In this document: piece after piece, positions 2,988 to 63,279 of the stretch
How the letters are laid out: the number at the start of each line of letters is the position of its first letter
Numbering within the stretch: the stretch's first letter is position 1
Source: Minisyncoccia bacterium
GTDB taxonomy: Bacteria; Patescibacteriota; Minisyncoccia; Phycocordibacterales; GWA1-40-21
Assembly: GCA_049695975.1 (NCBI GenBank)
Contig: JBAVTE010000024.1
Span: 1 to 63,402, forward strand
Direction of reading: 5' to 3'
Length of the DNA stretch: 63,402 nucleotides
Notes under the pieces: generated by a model
What the model saw: the letters and a program-made list of their open reading frames with translations, nothing else
Told to the model about the DNA's origin: nothing
Database searches by the model: none
Position numbers and translations under genes: made by a program

Positions 2988-3971
2988 ATGGAAAATGAAG
3001 AATTATACCGAGCAACCAGTGAAGCCATTGATTCAGAACCACTGAAGGGTCTAGGCTTAAAATTGATTGGAATTGGAGCTGAAAAAATTGTATTTGAAAC
3101 TCCTGGCAGTAAAAGAAAGATTATAAAAGTTAGTATTGATGAAGTTATGTTTGCGTTAGCCAAAATATTAGGGCTTGTACCAAAAGATCAAGAGCGTTAC
3201 TACTCACTTTCATCCATAATCGCTGAACATAAAATTATTGAAGAGGACCTTAAAGAGGTTTTTGGAACAGAACATCTATTAAGAAATGGTGTTTTTAAAG
3301 CAAAAATACCGCTGCCTAAAAATGTTGTTATCGAACTATTTAAAAATAGTCGCATGGGTCAAATTGTCACTAACATGCTAGATAATAGGGAAGACGATGC
3401 CACTTTTGAAGTTGAGGTATTAGTTGAAACTCAAACCAAAGCAGAAGAATTAAGTGATCCGGAAAAATATAAAACAAGAGATTTTAGTACAGATCTGATT
3501 ATTAGCGATGAATTTCGTGGTGCTAAAGATATTCCCCAGGCGCTAGTTTTGGCTGAGCAGATGATAAACGAACGATTCCTTGATAATTTTGATGAAGACC
3601 TTAAGGATGTAAAATATATTGAAATTATTAGAGAAATTTTAACTAAAATTATTCAGTTTACAAAACGTACAGGACAAATGCTTGATATCTTTGGTCCAAA
3701 CAATATTACGATTTTTACAAAAGAAGACGGTTCTTTAGATTATCATTTACCAGATGTGATCCTCCCTGGGACACAAAGCCGTTGGTTTATAAATATAAAA
3801 GATGATCCGGAATATAATTTGCTAAGACATTATTATGTTTTCTATTACTCCATAAAAAGTTTGGGCGATAAACTTGGACTTGCAGATAATCTTGAACCGG
3901 ATGACCTTGTTTATTTTAAAGGTGCTGGCATTCCTACAAGTGGGCAGTTTCCAGATTCTACTGAGAGATAA
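2988..3971 (+). CDS. Atypical protein-kinase-like fold protein (orphan)
   Basis: GIGAEKIVFETPGSKRKIIKV looks like a Gly-rich loop followed by the VAIK lysine. LDIFGPNNITIF...LDYHLPDV looks like a D..N catalytic loop followed by a metal-binding Asp. Confidence 0.45.
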   Translation: MENEELYRATSEAIDSEPLKGLGLKLIGIGAEKIVFETPGSKRKIIKVSIDEVMFALAKILGLVPKDQERYYSLSSIIAEHKIIEEDLKEVFGTEHLLRNGVFKAKIPLPKNVVIELFKNSRMGQIVTNMLDNREDDATFEVEVLVETQTKAEELSDPEKYKTRDFSTDLIISDEFRGAKDIPQALVLAEQMINERFLDNFDEDLKDVKYIEIIREILTKIIQFTKRTGQMLDIFGPNNITIFTKEDGSLDYHLPDVILPGTQSRWFINIKDDPEYNLLRHYYVFYYSIKSLGDKLGLADNLEPDDLVYFKGAGIPTSGQFPDSTER

Positions 3972-19721: not shown

Positions 19722-19736
19722 CATTGCAAATATATG

Positions 19737-19770
19737 AAAATCGCCAATGATCCAAAGGCGATTTTCTTTT
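19737..19770 (+). terminator. Intrinsic terminator AAAATCGCC-loop-GGCGATTTTCTTTT
   Basis: Hairpin followed by a T-tract. It is nested inside the longer inverted repeat 19717-19730 / 19768-19780. Confidence 0.6.
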
Positions 19771-19905
19771 GCAATGTGCCGGCCGGACTGAGCGAAGCGA
19801 AGGAGGTGGGGACTGCGACTTTGCCTTGAGTTCACGAAAGGCAAAAGTCGTGGTTCACAAATTTTTAAAAGCACCTTGAATGGTGCTTTTAAAATTGGTG
19901 CCGGC
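19768..19905 (+). repeat. G+C-rich hairpin-module element E2, 3' of tRNA-Arg
   Basis: It starts with TTTGCAATGTGCC, the reverse complement of the tRNA end plus trailer. It contains GAGCGAAGCGAAGG, the hairpin CGACTTTGCC..GGCAAAAGTCG, and GTGCCGGC direct repeats at 19775 and 19898. It also holds a bidirectional terminator at 19867-19890. Confidence 0.55.
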
Positions 19906-25027: not shown

Positions 25028-25111
25028 CATGACAAAAACTAGTTAAATATTAATACTTAGAATATTTAATTTTTTGTCTGGTGACCGAGTCTTCTATCGC
25101 CCACATATTTA

Positions 25112-26414: not shown

Positions 26415-26498
26415 GCACGGGTGGCGAAACTGGTAGACGCACTACCTTGAGGTGGTAGCGCCCGCAAGGGCATGGAAGTTCAAGTCTTCTCCCGTGCA
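26415..26498 (+). tRNA. tRNA-Leu (anticodon GAG), long variable arm, CCA not encoded
   Basis: Acceptor GCACGGG/CCCGTGC, anticodon loop TTGAGGT, variable arm CGCCCGCAAGGGCAT. A promoter TTGATT-17-CATAAT lies at 26377-26405. Confidence 0.85.
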
Positions 26499-26541
26499 CA
26501 GACATTAAAAAAGGCGCATCAAGCGCCTTTTTTAATGTCTG
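26499..26541 (+). terminator. Long perfect hairpin terminator CAGACATTAAAAAAGGCGC-ATCAA-GCGCCTTTTTTAATGTCTG
   Basis: 19-bp stem immediately after the tRNA discriminator base. Confidence 0.7.
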
Positions 26542-26661
26542 CTGGAGAAGACTTGAAAGACGGAAATCATTTTTCTAGCAAGAAAAATGATTGAGTCGAG
26601 GTCGACAGTATCTGTGAGCGACGGCGAACAGAAAACTGGTAATCAAGTCCTCTCTCGTGCA
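26542..26661 (+). repeat. G+C-rich hairpin-module element E3, ending in a degenerate direct copy of the tRNA-Leu 3' end
   Basis: Modules are at 26544-26557 (inverted T-arm copy), 26565-26592 (loop CTAGCAAG), 26611-26632 (loop GAGCGACGGCGA) and 26638-26661 (pseudo 3' end). Confidence 0.7.
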
Positions 26662-41458: not shown

Positions 41459-41527
41459 ATAGGAATTTTAATTTGCTTTTCTGATTCTTTTAATGTATCT
41501 TATTAATACCAAATAGTCTTGGTTTTA

Positions 41528-41606
41528 TTTTTTTATTTCGACTAGCGAGGAGCAAAAAGTAAAATTATTATTTTACTTTTTGTCCGAGCGAAGGCGAAAC
41601 ACAAGA
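41528..41606 (+). repeat. 79-nt repeat E6 (CTAGCGAG - 16-bp hairpin - CCGAGCGAAGGCGAAACACAAG), paralogous to 33483-33561
   Basis: Alignment with E4. The stem GGAGCAAAAAGTAAAAT/ATTTTACTTTTTGTCC carries one bulge. Confidence 0.7.
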
Positions 41607-57886: not shown

Positions 57887-58773
57887 TATTGATTACAAGT
57901 CAAAGATTTTATCTTTGCTCGAGTGATTGGTCCTACAAAACCAGTTGGACTAATTTTATTCGCTAGTTGGAATTTTTTTATTGCCCCAAGTGTCAATATT
58001 CCAAAAAAACTGGTTGATTCACTATTAAGATAATTATTTGTTCGTAGAAAGTCTTGTATAGATGAAATTTCGCTATTTTTAGAACCATATCTATGATCGC
58101 TTTGTAAACTTAAACAAGTACTTTTTGTTGATGGTACAGATATTGGATTGCTAAAAGTTTCAATTTTAATTGGAGTGTTATTGTTATATTTGGATGTTTG
58201 TTTGGATTTATATAAGTTCAACTTTCCATTAGAGTATCCTGCAATCGAATATTCGATTGTTTCTTCAATGAGTGGATTTCCAATATCAACATATCCACCA
58301 CTAGATTTTATATTTTCATCGTATACAAAAACATTTTTATCGGAGAGTTCGTCTATATACCAAAAGTCAATACTGTCAGAGCAAGGAGAATATTTATCTG
58401 ATGGATCATAATAACAATTATTTTTTTCTCTTAAAATAACTCCGCTTTTTAAGACTTTTTTAAATGGGTTAAAATTATTAATTTCAACTTGGTCAATATA
58501 GGTTTTTTTTGCAGCCAATATCTTTAAATTGTTAAATTTGTAACCCATTGAAAGGCACTCGTCCTTTTTTATTATATATGTTTCATGACCACTAACCCCT
58601 GGGCCAGTAATAAATCCAAGTAAATAAATATCTGAAAATTCATCCAAATTAACAATTTTAACACATCTACCAAGTGGATGAGAGTTTGGTGGAATTAGAT
58701 CGGCTAAAACGGTTGACGCAAACAAAAATCCAAAGGTCAATGAAAATAAAGTAAAGACAATAATTTTTTTCAT
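57886..58773 (-). CDS. Secreted protein with a C-terminal peptidoglycan-binding (PG_binding_1-like) domain
   Basis: Signal peptide, and the C-terminus ISSIQDFLRTNNYL...FGILTLGAIKKFQLANKISPTGFVGPITRAKI. Confidence 0.55.
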   Translation of the reverse strand: MKKIIVFTLFSLTFGFLFASTVLADLIPPNSHPLGRCVKIVNLDEFSDIYLLGFITGPGVSGHETYIIKKDECLSMGYKFNNLKILAAKKTYIDQVEINNFNPFKKVLKSGVILREKNNCYYDPSDKYSPCSDSIDFWYIDELSDKNVFVYDENIKSSGGYVDIGNPLIEETIEYSIAGYSNGKLNLYKSKQTSKYNNNTPIKIETFSNPISVPSTKSTCLSLQSDHRYGSKNSEISSIQDFLRTNNYLNSESTSFFGILTLGAIKKFQLANKISPTGFVGPITRAKIKSLTCNQ

Positions 58774-58923
58774 AATATCAAAATTTAATAATTGTTAATA
58801 ATTGTGATTATTATAACACATTTTTGAATCGTCAGTGGTGATTGTGGCGCGGAGAGAGTCACAAAGTAATTATATTTCTACTTAGAAATAGTCCATTAAG
58901 GTATCACATTAGATTAATGGAAT

Positions 58924-59817
58924 CTATTGTAGATAACCTCTGTTATATCTCTTAAGAATTTTTAGTAAGTTCTCATTAATTTCCTCTCCTCCCAATTTAC
59001 TATTTTGTATTTCATTCATTAATTCGGAAATTTTTGCTTGTTTTTCTGCTTTTTCTGAATTTTCATTTTTAACAATTCTGACAATTTTTATAAATTCTGG
59101 AAATGTTAGGTCTTTATTATTTTTTGTTTTTTCAAGAGCGAGTATTAAATTTTCTATATTTAAATAAGTTAATCTCTTTGAATCACTATTTATTTGTAAT
59201 TTATTTTGGTTATTAAAAATAGTTAGAATTCTTATTAATATAGCAAGTCTATCAAATTTTATACTAAATATATTAGGTATAGATTCTATATACCCAATGA
59301 CTAATTTTTGAGTGTTTTCATTTAAATTATCGCTAAATAAATTAATACAATTTTTTATGTATTCAATTTTTCTCCCCATTGATTCTTCCGCATAGCCTAA
59401 AATTCGTGGCATTTTTTGAATCAATTCAATAGGATTCTCAAAACCTTGTCCTTTTAACCACTCTATTTTTTTACCCATAGATTCTTCCGCAAGGCCTAAA
59501 ATTGGTGGCATTTTTTGAATCAATTCAATAGGATTCTCAAAACCTTGTTCTTTCAACCATTCAATTTTTCTCCCCATTGATTCTTCCGCATAGCCTAAAA
59601 TTCGTGGCATTTTTTGAATCAATTCAATAGGATTCTCAAATCCAATTTTTTTTAATCCTTCTATTTTATTTAAAATAGAAGATTCATCTTTTGTAATACT
59701 TTCAGGAGAAAAACCTAATTTTTCTAATATAGAATATATTTCATCGGAATAACGCAAATCATCTACTGGCTTATCTGGATTAAATTTATCATTCATAAAT
59801 ATAATATTATCATACAA
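58924..59817 (-). CDS. mTERF-like helical repeat protein
   Basis: Three near-identical 33-aa units, GFENPIELIQKMPRILGYAEESMGRKIEWLKEQ, match the mTERF repeat logic (Gf....i.k.....P.iLgys.E..l..k.e.L). Confidence 0.55.
   Translation of the reverse strand: MYDNIIFMNDKFNPDKPVDDLRYSDEIYSILEKLGFSPESITKDESSILNKIEGLKKIGFENPIELIQKMPRILGYAEESMGRKIEWLKEQGFENPIELIQKMPPILGLAEESMGKKIEWLKGQGFENPIELIQKMPRILGYAEESMGRKIEYIKNCINLFSDNLNENTQKLVIGYIESIPNIFSIKFDRLAILIRILTIFNNQNKLQINSDSKRLTYLNIENLILALEKTKNNKDLTFPEFIKIVRIVKNENSEKAEKQAKISELMNEIQNSKLGGEEINENLLKILKRYNRGYLQ
59363..59641. repeat. Tandem 99-bp repeat (about 2.8 units) inside the mTERF-like gene
   Basis: GATTCTTCCGC recurs at 59381, 59480 and 59579. Units 1 and 3 are identical over about 80 nt. 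Confidence 0.9.
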
Positions 59818-59873
59818 AATATAAACACACTATTGCAGTGTAGTCTTATTTATATCTATATAAGTATATACTA

Positions 59874-60033
59874 GTGGAGATGGCGAGAGTATCTCCCTCG
59901 ACTAAAGTTTCGCCGTCGCTCAACTTTGTCTGGGCACCAGCTCGTCTGTTTTTCTTGCTAGAAAAACATGACTCCGCTGTTCGATTCTCGCATGCAAGCA
60001 AAGCAGTTTGCTTGCTCATCTCCACAAAATTAA
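59874..60033 (-). repeat. G+C-rich hairpin-module element E7, 3' of tmRNA and homologous to E3
   Basis: It holds a 15-nt direct copy of the tmRNA 3' end (59874-59888 = 60061-60075). It also holds inverted copies of the T-arm (59979-59991) and of the acceptor plus trailer (60017-60033). The two hairpins have loops CTAGCAAG (59947-59968) and GAGCGACGGCGA (59904-59927). Confidence 0.7.
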
Positions 60034-60053
60034 AATCGCCCATTCAGGCGACT
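60034..60053 (-). terminator. tmRNA terminator hairpin (GTCGCC-TGAAT-GGGCGAT) nested in a stem of about 23 bp that includes the tmRNA 3' end
   Basis: The minus strand reads CATCTCCACAAAATTAAGTCGCCTGAATGGGCGATTTTAATTTTGTGGAGATG. Confidence 0.6.
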
Positions 60054-60061
60054 TAATTTTG

Positions 60062-60458
60062 TGGAGATGGCGAGAATCGAACTCGCGTGCAAAAGATAGT
60101 TTTCAGTGGGTCTACAAAGTATAGAATATTTTTTTCGCCACGAGGACGAATTTAAATAAAAAAGTTCGAAATAAACAAAATGCTTTTTTATCGATCTCTT
60201 AATCTCGGAAGTAGGGCAGAGAAGACCTACTTTCTTGTCTGATTATATTACACCGCTTTTCCGCTATCAGATATTACGGAAGGCGACGTCGCTTAGGCTA
60301 AAGCGTAAGCGAATTGAAAGTCCTTCACTCCGAAGAATGGAGAAACGATCTTTGAAATGCGATTTGCATTTATGATCCCTGTTAGTTTTAGGAGATAAAC
60401 AGAGTTGCTCCACTTTGCGCAAAGAAGTACCGGTCTTTTGTCTAGGCCGATCATCCCC
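60062..60458 (-). ncRNA. ssrA: tmRNA (ssrA), one-piece, predicted tag ANRISKIVSPFFGVKDFQFAYALA*
   Basis: 5' GGGGATG pairs with 3' CATCTCC including G3:U70, discriminator A, and a T-arm GCGAGAATCGAACTCGC on the plus strand. The tag ORF is at 60293-60367 and ends ...YALA-TAA. The gene is adjacent to smpB. Confidence 0.85.
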
Positions 60459-60535
60459 CTAAAACATTTTTGTTGCAAAAATGTTCGGGCGAACAAATTT
60501 GATTTCTGAAATCAAATTTGTTTTAGCCATACTTA

Positions 60536-60808
60536 TTATAAAATATGGCCTATTTTATTTATATATTTATTCAAGATTCTCTTTTTCTCCCTTGCTCCCC
60601 ATAGACTTTTTAAAAACCTTTCTCGATTAAAAGCGTTTGCTTTATCTACAATTTCTTCCGTATGAATCATAAATAAGGGTCGTCTGTTCCTTGTAGCTAA
60701 TACTTTCCCATAGTTATGGTCTTTCAGCCTTTGGTTTGGGTCTTCTGTACAACCCACATATAAGCGATCATCTTTTTTGCTTAATAAAATATAAACAAAA
60801 TATGACAT
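60536..60808 (-). CDS. Stand-alone GIY-YIG nuclease-domain protein
   Basis: YVYILLSKKDDRLYVGCTEDPNQRLKDHN motif. Confidence 0.75.
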   Translation of the reverse strand: MSYFVYILLSKKDDRLYVGCTEDPNQRLKDHNYGKVLATRNRRPLFMIHTEEIVDKANAFNRERFLKSLWGAREKKRILNKYINKIGHIL

Positions 60809-60814
60809 ATTTTT

Positions 60815-61258
60815 TTATTCATTTTTCAATGTTCTCCTGTCTTCTCTATCGAGCTCGCGTTTCATTATGCTAGCTCTTTTGTCGAAACTCTTTTTGCCTT
60901 TTGCTATCCCGATCTCTATTTTGAGTTTCTTGCCTTTATTATACACCGAAGTAGCAACTATTGTCAATCCTTTTTGATTTTCCGCATCTGCGAGTTGTTT
61001 TATTTCTTTTTTAGTTAGTAAAAGTTTCCTATTTCTTCTAGAGTCATAATCTTCCGGAACATTTTTGGGCTGAATAGGTGTAATGTTTGCGCCCACGAGA
61101 TATGCTTCACCTCCACGCACTATTGCATATGCACCTTCGAGAGAAGCCCGTCCTGCCTTGAGCGCCTTGACCTCAAAACCCAAAAGCTCTATCCCCGCTG
61201 AGAATTTTTCTAAAATTTCATAATTAAAATATGCTTTTTTGTTTTGTATCAAACTCAT
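60815..61258 (-). CDS. smpB: SsrA-binding protein SmpB
   Basis: KKAYFNYEILEKFSAGIELLGFEVKAL pattern and a basic C-terminal tail. Confidence 0.95.
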   Translation of the reverse strand: MSLIQNKKAYFNYEILEKFSAGIELLGFEVKALKAGRASLEGAYAIVRGGEAYLVGANITPIQPKNVPEDYDSRRNRKLLLTKKEIKQLADAENQKGLTIVATSVYNKGKKLKIEIGIAKGKKSFDKRASIMKRELDREDRRTLKNE

Positions 61259-61320
61259 ACATTTCTTATCATATCAAATTAAACTTTTTTTATATAGTGA
61301 AATGTGTTATAATTTTTTCT

Positions 61321-63279
61321 ATGAAAATATTTCAAAAAACTCCGCAAAAGGGAAACAAAAAGGGTGGGGGAATGCTCGGTGGGGACAATATGAAGTTTTT
61401 GACGCAGGTCACAAATGCAATTCTTATTATAATTATTATTTCTTTTGCTTTTTCCTTATTATTTAATAATGGTCCGAAGAAGGAAAATATTCCCATTTCA
61501 CAGCTTGCGTCAGATATTTCTCTCGGTCTTGTAAAAGAGATTACAGTTTTGGGAGACAATCTAAATATTACTTATAATGCTTTTGGCACAAGCACACCAG
61601 TAGAAAAAACTTCACAGAAAGAAATCGGGGTTGCTCTTACTGATACACTTGCAAATTATAAAGTTTCCCAAGACAAGCTGAATATTGTGAAGATAGATAT
61701 AGTTTCTGATCGAGGTTTTTGGTATTGGGTACTTGAGCTTGCACCTTTTCTCTTGCCTTTAATTTTTATTATTATTTTTATTTGGTATCTGACAAGACAG
61801 ATCAAAGGCCCGGGTATGCAGGCTTTTTCTTTTGGGCAGTCAAAAGCGAGAATTATTTTACCAAGTGATAAAAAACAGAGAATTACTTTTGCGGATGTTG
61901 CAGGAGCAAAAGAAGCAAAAGAAGAGCTTACCGAAGTTGTAGATTTTTTGAAAAATCCAAAAAAGTTTTTGGAAATTGGCGCAAAAATTCCAAAAGGTAT
62001 TTTGCTTATGGGCGCGCCGGGCACGGGAAAAACAATTTTGGCTCGTGCAGTAGCCGGCGAGGCTGGTGTAGCGTTCTTTTCAATTTCCGGATCAGAATTT
62101 GTAGAAATGTTTGTGGGTGTGGGTGCATCTCGTGTGCGTGACCTTTTCAAAATGGCCAAGTCCACTGCACCAGCGATTATATTTATTGATGAAATAGATG
62201 CTGTAGGCCGTGTGAGAGGTGCCGGAATGGGCGGAGGAAATGATGAGAGGGAACAAACTTTAAACCAGATTCTTGTGGAAATGGATGGTTTTGAACCGAA
62301 TGAAAAAGTGATAGTGATGGCTGCGACAAACAGACCCGATGTGCTTGATCCTGCACTTCTTCGACCTGGCAGATTTGATAGGCGAGTAGTGATTGACCTG
62401 CCAGATAGAAATGACAGGGAGGCTATACTCATCATCCATTCAAAAGAAAAACCTTTTGCCGAAGATGTAAATTTGAAAATTATTGCAGAAAGGACGCCGG
62501 GATTTTCTGGTGCTGATCTATACTCTCTTATGAATGAAGGCGCGATACTTGCCGCGAGAGAAAATAGAAAAAAAGTTTCTCAGTTTGACCTTGTGAGGTC
62601 AATCGAAAAAGTGATGATGGGTCCTGAAAGGAAGAGTCATTTACTTTCAAAGAAAGAAAAAGAAATCACAGCATACCACGAGGCGGGACACGCACTTGTG
62701 GCATCTGTTCTTCCTTATGCTGATCCGGTACACAAGATTTCAATCATTTCTCGCGGAAGAGCTGCTGGTTACACTTTGAATCTTCCTCTTGAGGAGAGAC
62801 GACTCCAATCAAAAAAAGAATTTCTAGATGATATTGCCGTGTCACTTGGCGGATATGTGGCAGAGAAAAATATTTTTGGAGATATTACGACTGGTCCTTC
62901 AAATGATTTGCAAGTTTCTTCAGCACTTGCCAGAGATATGGTTACAAAGTACGGAATGTCAGAAATGTTTGGACCAGTAGCCCTTGAAGGTGATGGTGGC
63001 AGAGCAATGTTTGGTCACGGAGTCGGAGACAAAGAATATTCCGACAAAGTAAATTCTCAAATTGATGCGGAGGTCTCGAGAATAATAGACGAAGCAATGA
63101 AAAAAGCGGAATTAATTTTAGGAGAATACAGAAAAGCTCTAGATAATATTGCGAAGACTCTTATGGATGTAGAAACAATAGAGAGAGATGATTTTGAAAA
63201 GATATTGATAGTAAATGGTATTATACCGAAAAAGAAGGATGTTATTTCGACGGATGAGGAGAAAGGTGAAAAATCCTAA
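61321..63279 (+). CDS. ftsH: ATP-dependent zinc metalloprotease FtsH
   Basis: Walker [12 protein letters not shown] region, HEAGHA zinc motif. The start is uncertain (61321, 61372 or 61390). Confidence 0.95.

Follow-up and report, generated by a model that had tools for sequence, protein, structure and literature searches.

Genomic islands and prophages integrate into tRNA and tmRNA genes via tyrosine integrases, and direct repeats of the tmRNA 3′ end are a classic signature of such islands. Islands of this kind in tRNA genes, and the traffic at the tmRNA gene, have reportedly been described in earlier work. At the icd gene, phage 21 and e14 carry a replacement 3′ end of a protein gene; both are phage-sized and possess their own integrase. 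The CTX-phage attP, used by XerCD, and the integron attC, used by IntI, are recombination sites that fold in single-stranded DNA.

Here, a 187-bp insert directly behind ssrA, located in a 63,402-nucleotide stretch of DNA from a Minisyncoccia bacterium (the window: positions 1 to 63,402 of contig JBAVTE010000024.1), is compared with these systems. As in the tRNA/tmRNA islands, the target gene is intact and the insert lies behind it, the far side is marked by a partial direct copy of the 3′ end, the join falls at a defined sublocation (here the T-loop), and the insert is oriented as the gene; tandem stacking and a patchy distribution among relatives are likewise shared. Unlike the islands, the element measures 187 bp and carries neither integrase nor cargo, a single core is found with at least 18 tRNA types, with tmRNA, and with protein genes, and the element contains an inverted target copy as well as stems covarying as a folded single strand. 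As with phage 21 and e14 at icd, the insert found at topA in other genomes supplies an alternative functional C-terminal coding end, with the displaced end lying downstream and differing mainly at synonymous positions, but without the phage size and the encoded integrase. With CTX attP and integron attC the element shares a strand-specific fold and a conserved structure of variable sequence and, in the mechanism proposed below, a hairpin that would rebuild a duplex recombination site and an enzyme acting in trans; its target, however, is whichever gene end it carries, rather than dif or attI.

The element is also short, non-coding, non-autonomous, and present in many copies per lineage, like miniature transposable elements (MITEs) and integrase-less cis-mobilisable elements (CIMEs). 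Unlike in these, its termini are target-specific rather than family-wide, and the copies within one genome are only 56–86% identical. Furthermore, the repeat length across the family ranges from 5 to about 90 nt, and the repeats are thus not the fixed target-site duplication expected of a MITE; a fixed-stagger duplication as in casposons was rejected on the same variability. The one-strand-folding core, the inverted target copy, and the target range of a single core are new. The tmRNA-linked insert is a protein-less member of a widespread Patescibacteria family that is apparently undescribed, a literature search that included the exact motif strings having yielded no description of the element. 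On the sequence comparisons presented here, the 187-bp period from position 60075 down to 59889 may be a non-autonomous integrative element of miniature size that recombined into ssrA within the T-loop-coding part of the gene, a reading that we consider to have about an even chance of being correct.

The insert behind ssrA and its sister copies

The features of the insert are collected in Table 1. The 3′ terminus of ssrA at 60061 reads ...TCTCGCCATCTCCAC (in the gene-orientation reading, the gene finishes ...GTTCGATTCTCGCCATCTCCAC), and its last 15 nt, GTGGAGATGGCGAGA, recur exactly at the far end of the insert (59874–59888 = 60061–60075). Just these two sites for the 15-mer were found in the window with up to two mismatches allowed, against a chance expectation of 0.03 matches. 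The downstream copy, D, is probably an attR-like relic. Around the terminator-like hairpin, perfect 17-nt inverted arms (60017–60033 versus 60053–60069) include the last 9 nt of ssrA, and a 13-nt segment of the T-arm is present as an inverted copy (59979–59991 versus 60070–60082). The hairpin with the CTAGCAAG loop (CUAGCAAG loop) was located at 59947–59968. Folding of the minus strand of 59874–60025 (152 nt) as RNA gave −68.4 kcal/mol, compared with −39.7 ± 3.7 for shuffled sequences (z = −7.8). A chance origin of the repeats and the fold is excluded by these two values, and every repeat and hairpin listed in a first-pass annotation of the same DNA was recovered, far beyond chance expectation. 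The CUGC-loop hairpin at 59994–60015 had not been a separate item in that list. Only spurious open reading frames, of 60–65 aa, overlap the insert.

Table 1. Coordinates of the ssrA-linked insert and of the related copies in the window
Feature	Position	Strand	Remarks
ssrA (tmRNA), target gene	60061..60458	−	ARAGORN; Rfam RF00023, 101.6 bits
tmRNA-linked insert, 187 bp	59874–60060	−	
T, 3′-terminal 15 nt of tmRNA	60061..60075	−	T-stem 3′ strand, acceptor 3′ strand, AC; direct-repeat copy 1
Intrinsic-terminator-like hairpin, then U-run	60033..60054	−	nested in 17-bp stem
I-acc, GTGGAGATG	60017..60025	−	acceptor 3′ strand plus AC, inverted
Hairpin C	59994..60015	−	9-bp stem, CUGC tetraloop; optional family module
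I-T, GCGAGAATCGAAC	59979..59991	−	T-loop plus T-stem 3′ strand, inverted
Conserved core, about 87 nt	59893..59979	−	covariance models R1 62.8 bits, R2 81.4 bits
P2 hairpin of core	~59939–59977	−	loop CUAGCAAG at 59954–59961; internal loop GNA/GA
P3/P4 hairpin of core	~59895–59937	−	terminal GAGCGACGGCGA at 59910–59921
D, tmRNA 3′ end, copy 2	59874..59888	−	15 nt exact; weaker similarity ~6 nt further 5′
Sister copy behind tRNA-Leu(gag)	26500..26661	+	gene 26415–26499
Terminator of tRNA-Leu-linked copy		+	in long stem
Inverted T-arm of tRNA-Leu-linked copy	26543–26557	+	
Core of tRNA-Leu-linked copy	26558–26644	+	
Direct copy of tRNA-Leu-linked copy	26645–26661	+	degenerate
Distant variant core behind tRNA-Arg(tct)	19781..19856	+	R1 24.3 bits, E = 0.0026; R2 27 bits

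The 9-nt termini of the element, GTGGAGATG and CATCTCCAC (60017–60025 against 59874–59882), can pair with each other, as had been noted before in terms of an acceptor stem. The pairing itself stands; it arises because both termini copy the same gene end, one inverted and the other direct, and no sign of tRNA mimicry was found. A retrovirus-like primer-binding site was also rejected, since the inverted copy follows the genomic trailer sequence and not the mature CCA end.

A sister copy lies behind tRNA-Leu(gag). Its flanks duplicate tRNA-Leu, not tmRNA, while TTTTTCTAGCAAGAAAAA and TGAGCGACGGCGAA are common to both copies at equal spacing. The homology of the two, proposed in the first-pass annotation, was borne out by covariance models made solely from other genomes: the tRNA-Leu-linked copy scored 53.9 bits with R1 and 70.9 bits with R2, next to the scores of the tmRNA-linked copy in Table 1. 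Membership of both segments in one family is thereby confirmed. In the distant variant behind tRNA-Arg(tct), P2 is short and the P4 loop is different. A remnant of the element is also present behind tRNA-Val in the window.

The folded core and its target-matched flanks

A pattern scan for CTAGCAAG-N(15–45)-GAGCGACGGCGA, with one genome per species, returned 100 loci, nearly all of them in Patescibacteria metagenome-assembled genomes (MAGs), namely Paceibacterota/Parcubacteria groups and MAGs labelled Saccharibacteria; the spacing between the motifs was 31–33 nt in 84 of 101 matches. A covariance model seeded from 22 of the scan loci then identified 100 copies among the fetched loci, some of them lacking the exact loop sequences. 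A same-strand tRNA or tmRNA gene lies within 400 nt upstream of 75 of 103 copies, and within 150 nt of 60, with 18 tRNA identities plus tmRNA represented. The targets are not confined to the tRNA and tmRNA genes to which the earlier suggestion referred, in that the element also follows the stop codon of topA (six loci in six species) and of efp. The idea of a dedicated miniature non-coding element at the tmRNA 3′-end site was thus extended to a family of over 100 copies that are linked to gene 3′ ends and bear target-specific flanks. Because such inserts yield partial tRNA and tmRNA copies along with long palindromes, they may mislead annotation and assembly.

The family architecture consists of a two-hairpin core of ~87 nt, flanked 5′ by I, a segment with complementarity to the 3′ part of the upstream gene, and 3′ by D, which duplicates the end of that gene in direct orientation. 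The loop of P2 is of the AGCA type and its internal loop is the conserved GNA/GA, and the tip of P3/P4 is made up of tandem G·A pairs, two G–C pairs, and a GACG loop. In an alignment that had been fitted to the covariance model, 93.8% of the core cells assigned to pairs were paired, versus about 46% when the partners were slid by 1–3 columns; two-sided changes were present in 771 core cells, versus about 100 in the slid control, and 29 of the 30 core pairs showed covariation with changes on both sides. P2 and P4 were also in agreement with single-sequence folds and with RNAalifold run on a MAFFT alignment, which is not model-fitted. G·U pairs are conserved, as the predominant pair, at two P3 positions, so that only the strand having the sense of the upstream gene folds. 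The folding strand could act as RNA or as single-stranded DNA. At gathering scores, a search of the whole window against Rfam 15 gave nothing for the core, and a search of the element region at E values up to 10 returned only the tmRNA end and chance miRNA-like hairpins; the core, a structured motif with strong covariation, is therefore absent from Rfam. Hammerhead, hairpin, and other known ribozymes were ruled out, the core consensus being missing and an Rfam match being absent.

The covariation bears on the possibility that the insert is a scar, consisting of fused att sites and arm regions that remained after a larger island or prophage had been lost from ssrA. The direct repeats of the tmRNA end, as the classic island signature, would fit such a history, as would a second, longer ssrA fragment further downstream at one ssrA locus (L162). 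This origin is nevertheless highly improbable: the compact, cargo-less unit recurs at over 100 loci; a scan of viral contigs for the two-motif pattern gave 0 matches, and a distant BLAST search of the 187-nt element against phages and plasmids gave none; and stems covarying as a folded strand are unexpected for double-stranded, protein-binding arm sites. The arm-site remnant that had been offered as the other option for this locus is accordingly unlikely.

The flanks correspond to the target sequence and change along with it. D agreed exactly with its own gene over at least 10 nt in 31 of 75 copies, compared with 0.2% when tRNAs from other loci were used; for I, matched as the reverse complement of its own gene end, the corresponding values were 37 of 75 copies and 1.8% in mismatched pairings. 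The tmRNA-linked copies in the window and at three loci from distant lineages (L005, L027, and L162) each fit the T-arm of their own gene, which differs from copy to copy. I fits the upstream gene copy better than the downstream copy in 55 of 75 cases. In addition, I and D pair, either mutually or with T, and D reaches up to 90 nt. In most copies D starts directly at the last base of the core, and its start corresponds to a position 15–19 nt before the tRNA end, with a mode of 17, the T-loop (37 copies). Thus, the gene 3′ end is indeed targeted, as had been suggested for the tmRNA gene, but the join in tRNA and tmRNA genes lies in the T-loop and not at the very 3′ end.

Two further modules vary among the family members. 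A terminator-like hairpin separates the gene from the core in 33 of 60 and is absent in the remaining 27, in which the core would therefore be co-transcribed with the gene. The CUGC-loop hairpin occurs in 33 of 60 tRNA-linked copies with a constant loop and variable stems; the stems are wholly different even between elements whose cores are 97% identical.

Patchy distribution and exchanged gene ends

For comparison of the ssrA locus, 80 loci with relatives of SmpB were fetched, and ssrA lies beside smpB in 42 of them. The ssrA loci of the closest relatives, L175 (SmpB 89% identical, tag peptide identical) and L102–104 (SmpB 85–86% identical), carry neither the element nor an inverted or direct copy, and CCA is encoded by their ssrA genes. 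These loci are thus the empty sites that were sought among relatives; beyond the insert, the sequence of the window has no equivalent in relatives, which limits the definition of the empty site to the gene side. Eight of the 42 ssrA loci, from more distant relatives (L146, L147, L148, L159, L161, L163, L168, and L162, with L159 and L161 near-identical) show an inverted and/or a direct copy of the tmRNA end downstream, at the spacing seen in the window. The inverted copy lies at +43 to +72 in seven of the eight, five of which add a direct copy at +160 to +200; L168 and L147 have the inverted copy only, the contig of L147 stopping 104 nt past ssrA. In L162, which has the inverted copy, an adjacent direct copy was located by eye and not by the exact-match search. 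The cores of these eight loci diverge from the covariance model. The region flanking ssrA is therefore neither invariant among relatives nor unrelated to the tRNA-linked loci, as it would be if the sequence were an integral part of the tmRNA locus.

The element is absent from most of the ssrA and tRNA-Ile loci sampled. At the same time, cores that are nearest neighbours, some of them near-identical, often occur at different targets in different genomes (tRNA-Arg and tRNA-Leu, 97%; tRNA-Arg and topA, 94%; tmRNA and tRNA-Tyr, 91%), tandem arrays are present at three loci (L008, L062, and L078), and the phylogeny of the cores conflicts with that of the topA flanks. These sequence patterns suggest that copies have been gained and lost and have moved horizontally. 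An estimated 10–20% of the sampled ssrA and tRNA 3′ ends are occupied. Patescibacteria have tiny genomes with few recognised mobile elements, of which the family would represent a sizeable unrecognised share, and it would also serve as a marker of gene flow between lineages.

The copies within one genome, at 56–86% identity, are old and diverse, yet all are structurally intact. This divergence speaks against a recent burst, and the persistence of old, intact copies could equally mean selection for a host function. The main rival to an integrative element is a structured RNA that acts in cis to the benefit of the host, located in the 3′ trailer or 3′ UTR and transcribed with the upstream gene, in which I would pair with the 3′ region of the gene for processing, stability, or termination and the duplications would be by-products. 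It accounts well for the strong covariation and conserved G·U pairs on the sense strand, for the strictly sense orientation behind genes, for the 27 copies in which no terminator precedes the core, for I remaining matched to T, and for cores that are intact even where D is truncated; furthermore, the orthologous copies L032 and L085 are 93% identical, compared with 84–86% for their flanks. However, a host RNA would not be expected to be missing from the ssrA loci of the closest relatives and from most sampled ssrA and tRNA-Ile loci, nor to be cut off from its gene by a terminator-like hairpin in 33 of 60 copies, and it leaves the tandem arrays and the near-identical cores at unrelated targets unaccounted for. 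We consider it fairly unlikely, the more so as it offers no account of the foreign-looking, functional D alleles of topA and tRNA-Thr described below.

At the topA loci, the direct copy comprises the final ~24–28 codons of the gene, stop codon included; at the efp locus, it comprises the final 13 nt. The displaced topA tails are in-frame and intact in all six loci. Differences between T and D of topA within a genome were distributed over the three codon positions as 14, 13, and 59, with 52 synonymous and 13 non-synonymous codon changes, and those between the D copies of different species as 50, 45, and 171. This third-position bias indicates that the two copies are different functional alleles and not a fresh in-place duplication undergoing decay; since the T/D differences are not adenine-specific, mutagenesis of the DGR type was also rejected. 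The I segment of topA (10–12 nt) covaries with synonymous variants of the expressed copy and not with those of the displaced copy. Synthesis of I by fold-back (snap-back) fails here, as I is only 10–12 nt in length and lies ~100 nt from its partner. At a tRNA-Thr locus (L032), D bears the acceptor strand of another tRNA-Thr lineage, as found in L057, and this strand is unable to pair with the resident 5′ half. Thus, the different alleles at topA and at this tRNA-Thr locus mark a recombination joint between lineages.

The displaced topA copy looks to have retained topA's own terminator, and a related genome, L069, has an empty topA site in which a short, D-like topA tail is followed by its own terminator. 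Taken together, the allele patterns of D, I, and T, the terminator beside D, and the L069 locus favour a direction of insertion in which the expressed end, I, and the core arrived together, with D being the old end of the recipient. The intactness of all six displaced topA copies counts against an integrative element, as it would mean that insertion is recent or reversible or that D is still used.

Possible mode of integration

A mechanism that would accommodate these observations can be outlined for the preferred reading, an integrative element. The inserted segment would bring a copy of the 3′ end of its target, the terminator, I complementary to that end, and the two-hairpin core. Since the element carries its own copy of the target 3′ end, ssrA would stay intact and insertion would be harmless, and D, the direct copy of 15 nt, would be the recipient's old ssrA 3′ end. 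In the sense strand, whether single-stranded DNA or RNA, I would pair with the element's copy of the target sequence and so rebuild a double-stranded replica of the target site beside the two conserved hairpins. The folded form would then be used by an enzyme encoded elsewhere; the most plausible candidate is a tyrosine recombinase working in the manner known from CTX-phage attP or integron attC, and site specificity would arise from the identity of the replica and the target T-arm. The renewal of the target-specific parts at a new target is left without an account by this scheme, which speaks against it.

A bolder version would address the choice of site itself, namely a protein-less mobile element whose site is programmed by base pairing, in which I, together with the direct copy next to it, would recreate the target duplex on the folded scaffold, and an enzyme in trans would exchange strands between this replica and the target. 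We regard this version as doubtful. If true, one scaffold would be able to spread to the 3′ termini of any tRNA gene, of the tmRNA gene, and even of protein genes, with the spare gene end making insertion harmless; if pairing between I and the target does set the site, the element would represent a natural, retargetable, and very small integration module.

Base pairing with a target is also the basis of guide-bearing systems. Guide pairing in IS200/IS605, the TnpB omega RNA, the IS110 bridge RNA, and TIGR-Tas all resemble the element in that a conserved scaffold lies beside target-matching sequence and target complementarity is located at the foot of a hairpin; the element differs from all of them in having no adjacent effector gene, in its size and motifs, and in giving no Rfam match. 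If the element were guide-programmed or a guide RNA according to IS200/IS605, IS110 bridge RNA, or TIGR-Tas logic, the core would be the scaffold, and a nuclease, recombinase, or reverse transcriptase encoded elsewhere would be guided by I, which complements the sense strand, and by the direct copy after it, which complements the template strand. Both target strands are indeed represented beside a conserved scaffold, I tracks the target over many targets, including the synonymous variants of topA, the four tmRNA-linked copies each fit their own T-arm, and cores that are 97% identical occur with different flanking specificities. This reading is nonetheless improbable. Besides the missing effector gene, the internal loops of the hairpins are conserved and not variable as in bridge RNA, pairing of I and D, mutually or with T, would mask the guides, and the length of the duplicated gene end is not accounted for by guidance alone. 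TIGR-Tas is an RNA-guided system known from these bacteria, and its tigRNAs are 36-nt box C/D units in arrays (PMC12045711); identity with TIGR-Tas was rejected, such arrays being unlike this element.

With respect to an enzyme serving the integrative element, a survey of the 3.5 kb around 84 copies revealed no recurrent recombinase, transposase, or reverse transcriptase, and the scanned open reading frames of the window contained none, which counts against this reading. Neither an integron integrase nor a cassette array was found near the copies. An mTERF-domain gene just downstream in the window was considered as a partner and set aside, as it does not recur at other copies. The recurrent neighbours were syntenic housekeeping genes, none of them element-specific, and the neighbour families comprised T4SS pilin paralogues near tRNA-Leu/Lys clusters, a YraN-like protein, and an HTH protein. 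The window also encodes a ComEC competence protein.

Architecture at loci of other genomes

Members of the element family stand behind tRNA, tmRNA, and some protein genes and share a conserved core of ~87 nt (hairpins P2 and P3/P4). Behind tRNA-Ile in the fetched locus L149 (320-520), the outer architecture is as in the family, with a terminator, an inverted acceptor copy, a CUGC-loop hairpin, an inverted T-arm copy, and the tRNA end repeated in direct orientation. The inner module is unrelated to the family core; the outer frame can thus accommodate different cores. In L069, L090, and L097, the cores are 97% identical and are preceded by CUGC hairpins whose 9-bp stems have no common sequence, with pairing that is perfect or almost so in each. 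Renewal or exchange of the CUGC hairpin seems to occur independently of the core.

In L162 (~3550-3610), a second 3′ fragment of ssrA, ~60 nt long, is present beyond the miniature element and roughly 590-650 nt downstream of ssrA, which suggests that a larger insertion has been stacked at the same ssrA gene.

Further family-like segments in the window

Three other regions of the window carry sequence resembling the family (see table). Behind tRNA-Val, GTGACCG, the usual 3′ end of core P3, precedes a degenerate duplicate of the tRNA-Val 3′ end (AGTCTTCTATCGCCCACAT), and the segment resembles what a deletion would leave of a family member. The variant core behind tRNA-Arg is similar to variants in L040 and L159. 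The hairpin upstream of fusA gave no match to the family covariance models.

Positions in the window of family-like segments and of genes near the ssrA-linked element
Feature	Position	Strand	Description
tRNA-Arg 3′ flank	19723-19900	+	terminator nested in a long stem, plus variant core
Variant core behind tRNA-Arg	19781-19856	+	UGAGUUCACGAA loop
tRNA-Val 3′ flank	25081-25106	+	GTGACCG, then degenerate tRNA 3′-end copy
fusA upstream region	41520-41600	+	hairpin between CTAGCGAGGAGC and GAGCGAAGGCGAAAC, both similar to element loop motifs
mTERF-domain protein gene	58924-59817	-	directly 3′ of the element
GIY-YIG nuclease ORF	60536-60808	-	90 aa (PF01541), between smpB and ssrA

Neighboring genes and strand context

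In the closest relatives (L175 and L102-104), the smpB-to-ssrA spacer is just 32-45 nt long and the GIY-YIG ORF is absent from it. By this sequence comparison, the ORF is a second insertion at the ssrA locus, independent of the element; it is possibly a free-standing gene, homing-endonuclease-like in character. On the other side of the element, the mTERF-domain protein contains three tandem repeats of ~31 aa each, seen as DNA repeats at 59400-59650. The mTERF domain is unusual among bacteria, and its gene was not recurrent beside other copies of the element.

The GC skew switches sign at 58000-62000, with negative plus-strand values, and the genes of this region, ssrA, smpB, and the mTERF gene among them, lie on the minus strand; the folding strand is thus the G-rich strand at both full copies, behind ssrA and tRNA-Leu. 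It would be the lagging-strand template at both, an assignment confounded by gene orientation.

Paralogue clusters of T4SS-pilin (PF18895) lie ~2.5 kb from elements at tRNA-Leu, tRNA-Lys, and tRNA-Cys loci (L008, L040, L043, L051, L061, L074, L086, and L089), probably reflecting synteny or an island beside these tRNAs rather than a partner of the element.
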